Source: Eledone cirrhosa (Eukaryota). From it: 64,000 bases of DNA. This document shows positions 54,058 through 63,550 of the stretch, piece after piece (the stretch's first letter is position 1; each line of letters begins with the position of its first letter). Position numbers and translations under genes: made by a program. The DNA is taken from assembly GCA_964016885.1 (NCBI GenBank), contig OZ024746.1, forward strand, positions 55,738,001 to 55,802,000. Direction: 5' to 3'. Below the pieces are notes generated by a model that saw only the letters and a list, made by a program, of their open reading frames with translations, did not search any database and was not told the DNA's origin.

Positions 54058-54518
54058 CCTTGTCTGGCTTTCTGGAGAATAGAGGAAAGGTGTTTCCTCA
54101 AAAACCAGTATGACTCTAAAAACCGGTTTGTCTGTGTGTTTACATACAGAATAGCTGGCCACTCACAGTAAAGTGACCAGTGAAAAAACTTGGTACATCT
54201 ACATATGTATACGTGTGTGTATTCATATACATACTAGTATTTCAGTATACATATATGGATGTACATCTTTAACTTAATTGTTTAAGCGTCAGTCATACAA
54301 AAGTGAGTTACAAACGAAACGAAATTTAATTTCGTTTCGTTATTTGTTTTTATATATATATATTTATATATATATATATATATATATATATATATATATA
54401 TATATATATATATATATATATATATATATATATATATCTATATATATATATATATATATATATATATATATATATATATATATATATATATATATATATA
54501 TATATATATTTATATATA

Positions 54519-56072
54519 GTTATACTTGGGGACGGTCATATTTGTGTAATATTGCCAGAATTAATAACAGAACACACTCACTGTTTGGTTGGTTTTCGCT
54601 TTTCGCTTCTGTGTCTTTTATATCGGTAATCTAATTTATTCGGTCCTCAATATTTCCAGTGACTGACCAACGGTAAAAAATAATACAGGTACAATATAGG
54701 CACAAACACATATATAAAGTCTATCAAAGTTCGTTCGTTACACATCTGCAACATCGTCAGTGGTGCTATTGTTTCCTCCCGTTACATTGTATTTCTACGC
54801 CATCTTTATTTAGTCTGTTTATATATTTATTTTTTTATTTGTTTGTTTGTTTATTTTATTTTGTCTTCTTTGCGCATGCGTTTGCGTGTGTGTATAGTGT
54901 TTTGTTTGATGTGTGTTCGTGATTGGGTGACTGTGTATTGGTTAATGTATTCTACCTTTACTAGTGTGTGTTTATATGCGTTTGTTGTTGTTCTGCTGGT
55001 GTATGTATTTATTTATTTATTTATCTATTTATTTATACTTCTCTTAGGTCAGTGTTGTTTGTTTGGGTGTTGTTGTTATTCCATTCATTCTTTCTGTTTA
55101 GTCTTGGCCTTCTAAGTTCTATTTCACTGGCCTCTCTGATTTGCCTATCTGCTGGGTCATTTCTATGTTTAGATATTATTCTAATTTCTATGTTGTCTAT
55201 GTTACCGTCGTGTTGTTGTCTGGCATGTTCATATAGTACTGACCCGTTTTTTCATTCTTTTAGTTCCACCCAGTGTTGGTCTATCCTTTCACCTATGCTA
55301 CGAGCTATCTCGCCTATGTATGTTGTTGTCATGTTTCTGCAAGTACCCTCTGTACATCTTATGCTATAGACTACGTTTCTAGTTTTACAGTTTATCCGGG
55401 GGGTTACCTTACATATGATACATTTCCTATTAGTACAGTGGGTTCTCTTAAAAGGGTAGGTTTTGCTGATCAGGGATTTTATGGTGGTTCCTGGCTTTTC
55501 TACGACTTTAATCTTTAAGTGGGTCTTTCTCAGGGGCTTTCTACACTGGTTAGCTAATTTCCCTCCAGGGGTAGCGTCCACAAACATGACACTCTGGTAT
55601 CTCTGGTTGTCGTACCATGAGGTGGCTTTCCCTATCTTATGTCTAGCCCTATCTAAGCTATTCCATGATTTGCTCCTGTATAATGGGCAAATTCCTTACA
55701 TGTCCAGTTCTATGAGGGTTTTATACTTCTCCATGGCTCCTTCGTATACTCTGACTCTGTCTCTTTGGTTGTAGCCAGAGAACTGCATGCGGTTGATGAA
55801 GTGTTGGATGTGTCTATCCATTTCTGCTGGGTCGCACATGCGGGACACATTCTTCATCACTCGTACCAAATCTGCGATCAGAATATTAAACTTAGCACTA
55901 TTGGACATCGCTGAGTTTTTGAGTATCATGTATTTGGAGGCCATGGGTTTAGCCTAGTGTGAGTGGAGAATTTGGGCTCTCTCGTCTATAGTATTAATCC
56001 AGAGTTTCGTGTCTAATACAGGTAGTCTATTGTTAGGGTGTTTGGGGGGGGTAGTCGATAGTTACAGTTATA
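54519..56072 (-). mobile_element. 5'-truncated PLE (family A2)
   Basis: Reverse-complement homologue of 25240-26772; MFVDATPGGKLA, YIGEIARSIGERIDQH; HHR core at 54722-54767 with GAAA changed to GAAC. Confidence 0.92.
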
Positions 56073-56074
56073 TG

Positions 56075-57060
56075 GATTCCTGTATATTCTTTCAATGTAA
56101 CATTATACAGTAAAATTGGGACTTCAGAATTCTTTACAATCTATATGACTATGGAATTAGGATCTATGAGTATTGCCATTGAAAAAGCAATTCTATAGTC
56201 TCTGCAGAAACAACGTTCTTGGTTCTGCTCGCTGTTACTACAGTGATGAGTTTCCAACATTTATAGTACCAAAAGACAGGATGTGCCATATTAAACACAA
56301 CCACGTCCAATGATTGTCCTTGAGATTTATTGATGGCCATAGCAAAACAGAGCCTGATTGGAAATTGAAGCCTTTGTAATTAAAATGACAAATCAGTTGG
56401 CCTGAGAGGTTCTCCGGCAACGAAAGAATTGTAGCTAGCAAATTTTCCTGAAAAGAGTTGGACTTCTAGCACATGCGACATCATTTTTGATGATGAATCA
56501 TGTGGCATTGCAAAGTTTTGGATGATCCAGTTTATGAAGTAGTGTAACCGAAGCCCCAAAACTTCTCTATCAATTTGTGTGGATGAATTCCTGCCAGTTC
56601 AAATCTGCTCAAACATTTCTTGAAAGGTTACAACTCGGTTTTGGGAAATGACTTTGTCTACTGATATTAACATCTTTTCTCTCCCAATCTCATATAGCTC
56701 CCGTAACCTTCTGTTAATTCCTTTCATTGTAAGATTATTCGGTGTTAAGCATGCTCATTTACAACCAGTTCACTTTCCACTTCAATGATTTGCACAAATG
56801 ACAATTAAATCTTGACATTCCAGTCCATTTCAAGAAGTTCATTTCAAGAAGTCCATTTCCCAATTTGAGTAGCTGGCTGGCAAACGCACTGACACCTACA
56901 TCACCAGTCAAATGCATTCGTATATTGGCTGTAAATCCCATTCGTTGAAAATGGAGCCAGAAATGTTTACAGATAGGCATTGACATGATCCGATCGGGTC
57001 CTTCGAGGATTGTTTGGCTCAGTTTTTTTGAAGTCACCAGCAATAATCATTGTCATCAAA
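56075..57060 (-). pseudogene. Decayed Helitron helicase segment
   Basis: FWLHFQRMGFTANIRMHLTGDVGVSAFASQLLKLGNG resembles the Helitron Pif1 LW....L..NMR.....FA..LL.IGNG region. Confidence 0.65.
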
Positions 57061-57922
57061 CATACAGGAAGCTCATGTGTCGTTTTAAGGTGGATTTTGC
57101 CTTTTCAACGGCATAGACATAGTTTTTTTTTCTTTTACCGGTTCATCACACCGCAATGTTGGCAGCCTTTCCAATGATGATTTGTGAATTGCTGCTGTAG
57201 TCCTTTTGGGTTCATGAGAAAAATCAGCCTGTTCGTATTTCTTGTTGCTTGTGTTCCTGCCTGGACAAATGACCGGTTTGCTTCCTCAGTACGTCGTATA
57301 ATTTGTCACACTTGCCAATTTATTGTTCTTGTGTAATGGCGTTCCTATGATAATTTTTTAAAAATCCAAACGGTACTGTCTGTCTATTACTAATTCGAGA
57401 GCTGGTGATAAATTTGTGAATACTCTTAGAAGACAGACCTATGGAGTGTCTTCGGGAGTATTGGGTTATCAGGTCAATTTTTAAATAATAAAGAACTAGA
57501 ATAAAAATATGTTTGTGTTAATTCAAATATCATTACAAAATAATAACGAAAGAATATCTGACAACATAATGTATACTGTATGTATATTCTTTATTTCAAA
57601 TGTTTACTGCAATAAAATATACATCGCCTGCTATATTAAACATGAGGTAGAGAAAAAAAAACAAAAAAAAACTCACACAAACCCTCACACACACATACGC
57701 ACGTACGTATACATACATGCACCCGTATGTACATATATATATATATATATATATATATATATATATATATAGTAATAATAATAAATGTTAAGACTAAAAT
57801 CCAAAGAGGGCTCGATAAGAAAAAATATATATCAAACATCTAAGAACCGTAGAGCAAGTATTTATTAAAATAACAGATTAAACTTTAATCTGTTATTTTA
57901 ATAAATATATATATATATATAT

Positions 57923-61740: not shown

Positions 61741-62144
61741 TATTAAAACATATAGACGTATATATATATATCATGTCGTTTTAAGTAGGAATGCCATCTA
61801 CATGTCTTTTGACATACATATATGCACATCGATATGCCGAAGAATATGTTCATACATAGATCTGAATCATTTAAATAAAAAATAGATTTATTGTCCATCG
61901 CACTTGAAGTGCATCTTACGCAAACAATTGTCGCGAATACAGCTTTATAGAGGTATATTGTTTCATAAATAAATGCACAATTCATTTCCACCTTACAATA
62001 TTAGTGACATCAAAAATCCTCCCACAGAGCACACACACACACACATATATATATATATATATATATATATATATATATATATATATATATATATATATAT
62101 ATATATATATATATATATATATATATATATATATATATATATAT

Positions 62145-62575
62145 ATAAGTATGTATACGTACATACTTATATGTATACAGACGTACAGTAGTATATATAT
62201 ATATATATACATACATGCACACATATATATATATGTACGTATGGATTCACCGAACATTTATTATAATGCTCGGTGTGTTTGTAAACAAACATCCCGAATT
62301 AAGCCGTACAGTGTCTAGCAACCATCGTTGCTCATTTGTTCAACACTGACAAATGAACGCTGTACTAGTTTCAAGCTTATTAACTATCGTCAGCAACGTA
62401 TACCTTCCTGCCAGATGATGAAACGTCTGAAAGTATATACTTTCCTTATGCATATTAACGGTTCAGCAGCCTAATTTGCATATCGAGTGAGTTAATCGGC
62501 CGGGGTACCGAAAACGATAAACGGAAAAAATGAAACGAAATTTCATTTCTCACTCTTAGTACGGCTATTAATTAA
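62145..62575 (-). mobile_element. Single ~430 bp HHR monomer (same family as 57923-59835)
   Basis: HHR at 62358-62398 (-). Confidence 0.88.
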
Positions 62576-62774
62576 ATCGCTGCTTTCACCCTTAACAGAA
62601 TTTCTGAAACTGGGTTTCAGAAGATCCCGTTAAGGGTGAAAGCAGCGATTATTTGCTTAAATTTTAATCTGTTATTTTAATAAATATTTTATCTACAATT
62701 CTTATATATTTGATATATATTTATCCTTATCGAGCCCTCTTGGATTTTAGTCTTCAAATTTATTATTATTACTA
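62576..62774 (+). mobile_element. Family-B PLE terminus as a small fold-back with tail
   Basis: aatcgctgctttcacccttaac..tctgaaac / gtttcagaagatcccgttaagggtgaaagcagcgatt, then a tail ending at (TA)n. Confidence 0.75.
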
Positions 62775-62849
62775 TATATATATATATATATATATATATA
62801 TATATATATATATATATATATATATATATATATATATATATATATATAT

Positions 62850-63550
62850 ATACATACATATATGTACGTATGGGTTTACCGAACATTTATTATAATGCTC
62901 GGTTTGTTTGTAAATTAAGCCGTACAGGGTGGTTCGGCAACTATCGTTGCCCTTTTGTTCAACACTGACAAAGGAACGATGAACTAGTTTCAAGCTTATT
63001 AGCTATCATCAGCACCGTATACCTTCCTGTCAGATGATTGAAGGTTTGACAGTATATACTTTCCACATGCATATTAATGGCTGAGAAGCCTAATTTGCAT
63101 ATCGAGTGAGTTACTCGGCTGGGCGTACCGAAAACGATAAATGGAAAAAATGAAATTTCATTGTTCACTCCTAGTACGGCTGATACTTAAATATACGTAT
63201 GTATACGTACATACTTTCAAACGGTCATCTGACAGGAAGGTATACGGTGCTGATGATAGCTAATAAGATTGAAACTAGTTCATCGTTCCTTTGTCAGTGT
63301 TGAACAAAAGGGCAAATATGGTTGCCGAACACTGTACGGCTTAATACGGGCTGTTTGTTTACAAACAAACAGAGCATTATAATACATGTTCGGTAAACCC
63401 ATACGTACAAATATGTATGTGTGCATGTATGTATATATATACATACCACTGTACGTCTGTATACATATATGTATGTACGTATACATACTTATATTTAAGT
63501 ATCAGCCGTACTAGGAGCGAGAAATGAAATTTCATTTTTTTTCCATTTAT
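62850..63550. mobile_element. Head-to-head pair of ~420 bp-family HHR monomers (variant subfamily)
   Basis: HHRs at 62977-63017 (-) and 63245-63285 (+): CGGUG-CUGAUGA..GAAA-CUAG-UU-CAUCG; inversion at ~63215. Confidence 0.88.

Follow-up and report, generated by a model that had tools for sequence, protein, structure and literature searches.

Repeat families at the locus

The window analysed here is the whole 64,000-nt stretch of the Eledone cirrhosa genome at positions 55,738,001-55,802,000 of the forward strand of contig OZ024746.1 (assembly GCA_964016885.1). It contains two families of tandem repeats, A and B, with units of 467 nt and ~424 nt, respectively; for B, the period measured within the window is 426 nt rather than the 420 nt given by a first-pass annotation. 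The arrays have a GC content of 0.34-0.37, and no non-repetitive frame of 120 aa was found inside them. With no ORF inside, the units lack the reverse transcriptase (RT) and GIY-YIG ORF of an autonomous Penelope-like element (PLE). Each plus-strand array in the window has an inverted partner arm to its left, the outer end of which is not TTTAT (Table 1).

Table 1. Arms, outer ends and hammerhead motifs in the window. S1 and S2 are the two outer-end sites; a slash marks the junction.
Feature	Position	Strand	Details
Family A inverted arm, 1.24 monomers	52807..53387	-	outer end S2 (..CTTTAACTTAATT/ATATA) at (TA)n 52605-52807
Family A direct arm, 2.07 monomers of 467 nt	53387..54353	+	outer end S1 (..TTTGTTTTTAT/ATATA) at (TA)n 54351-54518
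Putative type I hammerhead motif of A	53543..53590	+	predicted cut after GUU at 53583
Further A hammerhead copies, cores	54020 and 53066	+ and -, respectively	sequence motif
13-bp A hairpin in S2-S1 tail	54313..54341	+	ends 12 nt before S1; internal copy 53846-53874
Family B inverted arm, 1.6 monomers	57921..58596	-	two intact-core hammerheads; outer end S2 (..CATACTTAT/ATATA)
Family B direct arm, 2.9 monomers of 426 nt	58600..59837	+	outer end S1 at (TA)n 59835-59919
Single B-type arm, 1.03 monomers	62140..62577	-	outer end S2 at (TA)n 62045-62140
Diverged B-type pair, inverted arm	62864..63214	-	internal TA-rich stretch runs into (TA)n 62773-62863, so the outer end is not a true S2
Diverged B-type pair, direct arm, 0.76 monomer	63227..63550	+	outer end S1 at (TA)n 63548-63582

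The homology of the two families, claimed in the first-pass annotation, is borne out by global alignment. Unit A (window 53387-53853) and an intact B monomer are identical in 289/410 columns (70.5%), and 200 dinucleotide shuffles score -94 ± 14.5 (maximum -59), against 165 for the true alignment (z = 17.9). Taken alone, the segment that begins at S2 and stops just short of the ribozyme is significant too (A vs B score 51, maximum of 300 shuffles -14). The common motifs that had been listed, TGCTGA, GAAACTAGT and gaaattt..tttcgtttc..tttatcgt, are all present. A third family, D, conserves the same end register. Exact matches to the core number 39,091 genome-wide (control, 0).

Each unit carries one type I hammerhead motif, consisting of a core and three stems. 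In A these are a 7-bp stem I, CUGAUGA, a 5-bp stem II, GAAA, and a 2-bp palindromic stem III, ACUAGU. Across 8 hammerhead sequences, 6 of 13 pairs have changes on both sides and 95% of cells are paired; compensatory changes between A and B lie in stems I and II. B and D have U-U instead of G-C at the base of stem II, and the A/B hammerhead has no Rfam match at the gathering score. The three plus-strand B copies at 58600-59837 all read GGAACTAGTAGAGC (GGAA) in place of GAAACTAGT, so their hammerhead cores are damaged; the minus-arm copies of the same locus have intact cores. A and B are homologous families of non-coding repeats with a hammerhead motif and, judged from their sequence, almost certainly non-LTR retrozymes.

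Outer ends of the arrays

TTTAT ends occur at 54353, 59837 and 63550, and ATATA comes next in each. The three right-hand ends thus stop where the first-pass annotation placed them, its 54352 and 59835 lying within the 3-nt TAT ambiguity. Genome-wide, exact ends of this kind (S1 joined to (TA)n) number 2,386 on the forward and 2,419 on the reverse strand (4,805), and read-throughs of S1 are about twice as many (5,530 forward and 5,067 reverse). S1 lies 147-164 nt before the next predicted cut site. Outer ends at the ribozyme cut site itself were considered and rejected: the 31-position control window after that site yields 28 joins to (TA)7, a forward-strand count for a pattern that requires a longer TA run, the reverse count being inflated by multiple counting.

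A second homologous site, S2 (ACTTA), is located 62-77 nt upstream of S1. Its pattern is found 2,339 times genome-wide against 48 for the control; this is the forward count alone, because the reverse strand is overcounted, and it misses family A, which is one base shorter. In an unbiased set of 64 outer ends, which remain once 25/89 low-complexity matches under 78% identity are dropped, 27 are at S1 and 24 at S2. Hence 51/64 ends fall within two windows totalling 28 nt of about 424, and the random distribution named beforehand as refuting a fixed site is not seen. Of 87 S1 ends, 82 map to one same base. TA-rich DNA adjoins 45/51 S1/S2 ends, and S2 ends are also joined to (CAT)n (locus L085) and (GA)n (locus L066).

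These end positions suggest that S1 and S2 are probably starts of reverse transcription, which fits internal initiation by a PLE protein in vitro as described in PMC11167929. The first-pass proposal of a conserved internal RT start therefore stands in that the register is kept in A, B and D, is non-random and is not the ribozyme cut; it falls short in that there are two sites, not one.

The proposal that pairing with the (TA)n primer sets the site did not hold. The pairing of S1 with such a primer is 3 nt only, and 34 (A), 57 (B) and 65 (D) registers pair at least as well, including alternating runs of 16 nt (B) and 23 nt (D) that collect few ends. Pairing may therefore fix the exact base, and it cannot choose the site. 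The acgaaacgaaat..tttcgtttcgt hairpin (13 bp, 53846-53874) named in that proposal is found in A only. B folds its hairpin in another register (four folds compared, L111 left out as the wrong stretch), and the joint alignment has almost no consensus fold there (-0.97 kcal/mol).

Two-armed insertions and their template

Insertions consist of two arms set head to head, with S1 and S2 divided between them. In 107 two-armed loci with both ends seen, the combination is S1+S2 in 85, S1+S1 in 1 and S2+S2 in 0; in 21, an end lies elsewhere. In a fresh set of loci, for which the prediction had been fixed beforehand, 30/37 are S1+S2 and 0/37 S1+S1. Duplicated loci were left out. Arm geometry was counted in 87 pairs, including 2 whose S2 calls were later downgraded following an anchor check. 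S1 arms pass S2 in 82/87 and are no longer than the tail in 3/87. The cut site is crossed by 66/87 S1 arms and 80/87 S2 arms, so a cut monomer did not serve as the template. In 11/87 pairs each arm covers sequence that the other lacks, the longer arm can be of either type (41 vs 46), and 11/87 junctions are symmetric where about 2 are expected. Inner ends are scattered; a post hoc idea that they lie at the ribozyme cut site failed on new loci (10/91 arms in the test window, p=0.72).

For 28/35 family A loci, no arm is closer than the partner; the mean distance is 0.47% to the partner and 4.05% to other loci, and minor alleles are shared between arms 300 times vs 46 discordant. Several A variants 2-3% apart each have zero or almost zero difference between arms. 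In family B the distances are 2.7% and 4.5%, and the partner is nearest in only 7/36 loci. Among 171 sites, 4 are fixed differently in the two arms of the window's own B locus. This locus gave rise to the idea of different templates for each arm, which was dropped: 15 A loci and a further 18 B loci have 0 arm-diagnostic sites, two-copy coverage being low in many of them. No confident mixed-family pair was found, the one flagged (L075) being a decayed locus.

Variants unique to a locus and fixed in both arms occur at 23/83 loci. Of these variants, 18/41 are A>G, vs 36/326 of single-monomer variants (Fisher p=1e-6). The ratio of A>G to T>C among them is 18:7 (p=0.04), and single-monomer variants have no A>G excess (16:12 and 20:21). 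The excess fits RNA editing of one template. We consider it somewhat favoured that both arms were copied from one RNA molecule.

For a circular form of that RNA, the odds appear even. Periodic variants in long arrays (a dimer in L242, a six-mer in L280, a duplicated three-mer in L035) show or suggest array expansion after insertion, and array length is therefore no proof of rolling-circle copying. Dimer or trimer circles may also underlie these periodic variants; the patterns break off or fit later duplication.

Autonomous PLEs in the same genome

In an autonomous PLE of the E. cirrhosa genome, two end sites separated by 60 nt account for 22 of 30 copies. In 20 refetched loci, there are 14 head-to-head pairs, and 14/14 combine a long and a short end, with a 60-nt tail. 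The long end reads ..AATAT/CGT in the 2 read-through copies seen. As expected of a non-autonomous PLE derivative, A and B have a truncated copy inverted head to head, and one of the two ends carries a tail. A/B insertion is very probably PLE-driven.

A pLTR sequence common to PLEs and A, B or D was not found in 90 PLE loci, which are the top candidates of very large families; the best non-retrozyme match has E=0.03 over 26 nt. Three candidate partners were set aside for want of a shared pLTR: a family that we take from its motifs to be Poseidon-like, which also has no canonical hammerhead in its 3' flank; one presumed Neptune-like, with a different hammerhead; and the GIY-YIG matches.

A model for the paired arms

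We propose, with a probability of roughly 0.7, that the arm pairs are the footprint of a Penelope-type RT that begins copying one RNA at two fixed internal positions, from both sides of a DNA break. A borrowed Penelope-like RT-endonuclease would cleave a (TA)n tract on both strands and start one cDNA from each broken end, at S1 and S2 of the same RNA, which may be circular or an uncleaved multimer. The S2-hairpin-S1 segment could be gripped by a protein dimer, with an active site at either end of the segment; the sites would be chosen by RNA structure and protein, and the 3-nt UAU would do no more than seat the primer. Copying would proceed upstream from both sites, with the polymerase that started at S1 displacing or trailing its partner from S2. 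Where each stops would vary, and the resulting cDNA ends would be joined, often via short homology or an internal palindrome. The 21/107 pairs with an end elsewhere speak against this scheme, and so do the lack of a shared pLTR in the 90 PLE loci, the U-U at stem II of B and D, the few B loci (7/36) whose nearest arm is the partner, and the fixed differences between the window's B arms. Its fullest form is a tentative suggestion, to which we give rather less than an even chance: the dimer would be asymmetric and the template a single RNA circle, on which both ends of a double-strand break would be primed at two fixed sites, one on either side of a hairpin, and the RTs would chase each other with strand displacement. 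Two RTs chasing round a circle would leave every insertion with one tailed and one tail-less arm. If true, this accounts in one step for the PLE tail, the inverted copy and the retrozyme arrays.

A single internal start, chosen by UUUAU pairing with a nicked (TA)n primer beside a conserved hairpin, would agree with the TAT kept before the junction in A, B and D, the one base shared by nearly all S1 ends, the TA-rich flanks and the AATAT of the autonomous PLE. It is made very doubtful by the equally frequent use of S2, the few ends at far better pairing registers, the S2 ends at (CAT)n and (GA)n, and a hairpin register that is not the same between families. That S1 is instead a real RNA 3' end, for example by T-run termination, followed by ordinary 3'-end target-primed reverse transcription, is hardly credible. 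All three families do have a T5-T7 run shortly ahead of S1; however, the gap between run and S1 is 2 nt in A and 8 nt in B and D, S1 is read through more often than stopped at, and S2 and the pairing of arms are left unexplained.

Two other explanations keep a role for both sites. A dimer could bind two RNAs, one per subunit, from one dominant source locus, or later gene conversion could have made the arms alike, with the PLE machinery and S1/S2 kept. Inverted arms are able to convert one another, and the four fixed differences between the window's B arms would suit two templates. This is improbable given that A variants 2-3% apart have near-identical arms and that locus-unique variants are fixed in both arms; the 2.7% drift between older B arms indicates that conversion is not strong. 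Self-priming or fold-back into palindromic DNA, resolved by the endonuclease through staggered cuts at S1 and S2, follows readings proposed in PMC3846280 and PMC8557442, which explain the PLE tail by endonuclease resolution or the inversion by self-priming. The excess of symmetric junctions favours it, and an arm copied from the other would account for shared variants. It is nonetheless unlikely, as RT starts are placed at tail ends in vitro (PMC11167929), some pairs have arms neither of which contains the other, and the longer arm is of either type. Moreover, independent resolution of two like ends would not yield 85:1.

Comparison with known systems

In L1 twin priming, two primers on one RNA give a head-to-head product with a short-homology junction, and the first cDNA stops near the second primer. 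A and B resemble this in their head-to-head arms and junctions with short homology. They differ in that the second site is fixed and that most S1 arms extend past S2, only 3/87 being no longer than the tail.

The units are similar to metazoan non-LTR retrozymes as described in PMC7229834 and 10.64898/2026.07.22.740005: they are tandem, non-coding and low in GC, carry a single type I hammerhead per unit and no LTR, and occur as dimers to long multimers in tens of thousands of copies, with PLEs in the same genome. Their lengths match or exceed the 150-450 nt reported there. The published elements are described as plain tandem arrays; the words 'inverted' and 'opposite' are absent from the 2020 text (PMC7229834), and two arms or fixed paired ends, seen in A and B, are not described in the available text of either source. 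Circles and cleavage have been shown for the published retrozymes, whereas A and B are known here from DNA sequence. Sequence kinship to a pLTR has been shown for Xenopus and was not found for A, B or D in the 90 PLE loci. PLEs are called a 'strong candidate' for moving animal retrozymes, the mechanism being left open in that literature.

Compared with endonuclease-bearing PLEs (PMC8557442, PMC3846280), A and B are without an ORF, both arms can be multimers, and the tail is about 55-75 nt instead of 30-40 nt. The rule of one tailed end, given in those texts in words only, is counted here (85:1). A and B thus appear to be non-LTR retrozymes bearing the known PLE 'tail'. Each ingredient is already known singly; their combination for retrozymes was not found in literature searches, supplements aside (the pairing may be touched on in Fig. 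S2 of PMC11167929).

A biochemical parallel is the Poseidon protein of Anolis carolinensis, which in vitro cuts and extends both strands of an AT-rich target, is a predicted dimer, and uses uncleaved RNA with two internal starts bounding the tail (PMC11167929). The A/B ends are likewise two sites bounding a tail at an AT-rich target. The Poseidon starts are at an AC-rich stem-loop without target homology, whereas S1 of A and B has a conserved 3-nt UAU. Poseidon has no start-site difference between strands, whereas in A and B the two sites are strictly split between arms, an asymmetry that PMC11167929, as far as its text goes, would not predict.

The origin of PLE tails and inverted copies is unsettled, and the E. 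cirrhosa genome holds thousands of protein-free elements with the full PLE footprint. They add two constraints: a strict division of the sites, one to each end, and a single template variant behind both arms. As A and B are 30% apart yet keep both sites, the cis signal is narrowed to about 80-100 nt, and ready RNA substrates are at hand.

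Homologous hammerhead repeats in a (TA)n-rich genome

The genome (3.0 Gb, 1,796 contigs) is (TA)n-rich and holds 39,091 matches to the exact hammerhead core pattern. As the first-pass annotation had claimed, the 467-nt family (A) and the family it gave as 420 nt (B, here 426 nt) are homologous: with both units started at the predicted ribozyme cut, a full-length alignment gives 70.5% identity (289/410; z=17.9 against 200 shuffles). Units of a third family, D, are 466–502 nt long and are 72% identical to A and 85% to B. Every unit has a predicted type I hammerhead motif with a 2-bp palindromic stem III. 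Base pairs are changed on both sides at 6 of 13 hammerhead pairs among eight sequences, whose relatedness inflates the shuffle test; slid controls are all ≤47% paired. All three plus-strand B copies at window 58600–59837 carry mutated cores. The 13-bp hairpin named in the first-pass annotation is A-specific, and the hairpin of B lies in another register. The A and B elements are best filed as non-LTR retrozymes, with hammerhead cleavage predicted from sequence and circles putative; their mode of insertion is PLE-like.

Features of the window (G000:C6:55738001-55802000)
Feature	Position	Strand	Source or remark
Family A array, 467-nt period	53387-54353		Tandem Repeats Finder
Family B array, 426-nt period	58600-59837		Tandem Repeats Finder
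Two related PLE families, 3' hammerheads, short or long ends ~60 nt apart	2601-4760, 1400-1733; 10256-10640, 25006-26830, 38021-38250, 54519-55950		presumably Neptune-like (by motifs)
Fragments of an abundant PLE	5654-6577, 39607-40674, about 61000-61740	-	presumably Poseidon-like
LINE, frames for endonuclease and reverse transcriptase	16454-22004	+	
Unrelated hammerhead family, head-to-head pair	28828-29413		within (AT)n; arms end ~115 nt apart, longer at ..TTCTTTAT
Inverted pair, PLE-like frames amid tandem repeats of 78-79 nt	38726-41483		
Short recurring element (..TTCAGAAGATCCCGTTAAGGGTGAAAGCAGCGATT..)	57772-57910, 62578-62772		adjoins several PLE and retrozyme ends; also at loci L166, L172

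Outer ends at two sites

The TTTAT ends noticed earlier lie at window 54353, 59837 and 63550, each followed by ATATA. An unbiased sample drew on the first 100 core matches as they follow one another along the chromosome (46 stretches, the last two listed loci left out), and dropping 25 of 89 matches for low identity left 64 arms. Their outer ends fall 27 times at this site (S1, TTTAT|cgt), 24 times at a second site, S2, and 13 times elsewhere; thus random ends and the single register of the first-pass annotation are both refuted. S2 consists of ACTTA and as many as 10 further nt and lies 77 nt (A), 62 nt (B) or 64 nt (D) upstream of S1, and a forward-strand pattern finds 2,339 S2 ends of B and D genome-wide. 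At two loci S2 abuts (CAT)n (L085) or (GA)n (L066) rather than (TA)n.

Two-armed architecture

Arrays consist of diverging arms joined by their inner ends. Pairs were tallied from top A and B matches, the unbiased set, sets picked on one end, and the window; seven of 114 distinct two-armed loci are incomplete at the edge of the examined DNA, leaving 107. Eighty-five are S1+S2 (36 A, 45 B, 4 D), one is S1+S1 (L064), none is S2+S2, and 21 have an end elsewhere. The S1+S2 prediction was tested on 60 newly sampled loci, whose 37 distinct pairs comprise 30 S1+S2, no S1+S1, six other and one incomplete. The window has S2+S1 in its A pair and its first B pair, and the left arm of its last pair stops in that arm's own internal TA run. 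One family A locus, G000:C1:5738327-5752754 (L112, L113), entered as incomplete, has ~31 monomers on its S2 arm and 0.74 on its S1 arm.

Templates, priming and alternatives

In the available text of PMC11167929, PLE protein is described as cutting and extending both strands, with two internal starts bounding the tail and a predicted dimer. Extrapolating from that account, a PLE dimer would prime both ends of a (TA)n break on one RNA, at S1 and S2; the template copied may be a circle or an uncleaved multimer, and the two cDNAs would then be joined.

Family A partner arms are each other's closest arm at 28 of 35 loci (distance 0.47% vs 4.05%), family B ones at 7 of 36 (2.7% vs 4.5%); B is the older family. 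Locus-unique variants are fixed across all copies of both arms at 12 of 36 loci in A and at 11 of 47 in B. On the ribozyme strand, A>G makes up 18 of 41 such variants vs 36 of 326 single-monomer variants, an excess consistent with editing of a single RNA before it was copied, although selection on RNA stems could mimic the same pattern and the strand test is weak (A>G vs T>C 18:7, p=0.04). Against one template, the window's B arms differ at four fixed sites. Variants are also periodic inside arrays at L242 (2 monomers), L280 (6), L035 (3) and L112 (2), as satellite-like post-insertion growth or multimeric templates would give; at the first three this points to growth after insertion and is counted against one template. 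Set against the shared variants, copying from two RNAs, or later gene conversion of the arms, is improbable. Fold-back copying followed by endonuclease resolution is somewhat less so, though still unlikely. Among 87 pairs (two later downgraded), 11 have symmetric junctions at internal palindromes and 39 a junction overlap of ≥2 nt, and in 11 neither arm is contained in the other. The longer arm can be either one (41 vs 46), and arm lengths are weakly correlated (rho 0.29).

The first-pass annotation had S1 pair with a (TA)n primer. Pairing there is limited to the conserved TAT, which probably seats the primer but does not select the site, because 34 (A), 57 (B) and 65 (D) registers pair as well. 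Alternating runs reach 16 nt in B and 23 nt in D, and at most ~5 of 64 ends lie within them. A single start chosen by primer pairing is slightly less probable even than two RNAs or conversion. That S1 is a true RNA end is barely credible: the genome holds 4,805 S1-(TA)n joins (control: 28 forward-strand joins across a 31-position window 3' of the cut site, under a stricter TA requirement) and 10,597 S1 read-throughs. The predicted cut site is crossed by 66/87 S1 arms and 80/87 S2 arms, and S2 is passed by 82/87 S1 arms. Homology, two sites, strict pairing, shared variants and cut-site read-through are directly supported, and the dimer-priming account builds on the cited protein; the earlier observation is confirmed and its interpretation half right.

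Comparison with Penelope-like elements

An autonomous hammerhead-bearing element of this genome, which we take to be Neptune-like from its motifs, has a GIY-YIG match (E=0.0004), and 22 of 30 copies end at two sites 60 nt apart. Twenty re-examined loci comprise 14 head-to-head pairs, all long plus short, four one-armed and two complex insertions. Two copies extend beyond the long end and have ..AATAT|CGT there, resembling the retrozyme TTTAT|CGT; beyond this likeness the element has no sequence in common with A, B or D, and a partner element for these was not found among 90 PLE loci. Relatives of the abundant, presumably Poseidon-like PLE carry open frames of 713 aa, and a canonical hammerhead is absent from the 3' flank of 30 of its copies. 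The PLE copy ending at window 54519 shares its (TA)n tract with the S1 end of family A.

Mobilisation of retrozymes by PLEs has been proposed, in the available text of PMC7229834 and 10.64898/2026.07.22.740005, on shared ribozymes, co-occurrence and pLTR kinship. Among the main texts searched, none was found to describe retrozyme insertions with paired ends or with a template common to both arms. Added here are S1 and S2, homologous between families 30% apart.
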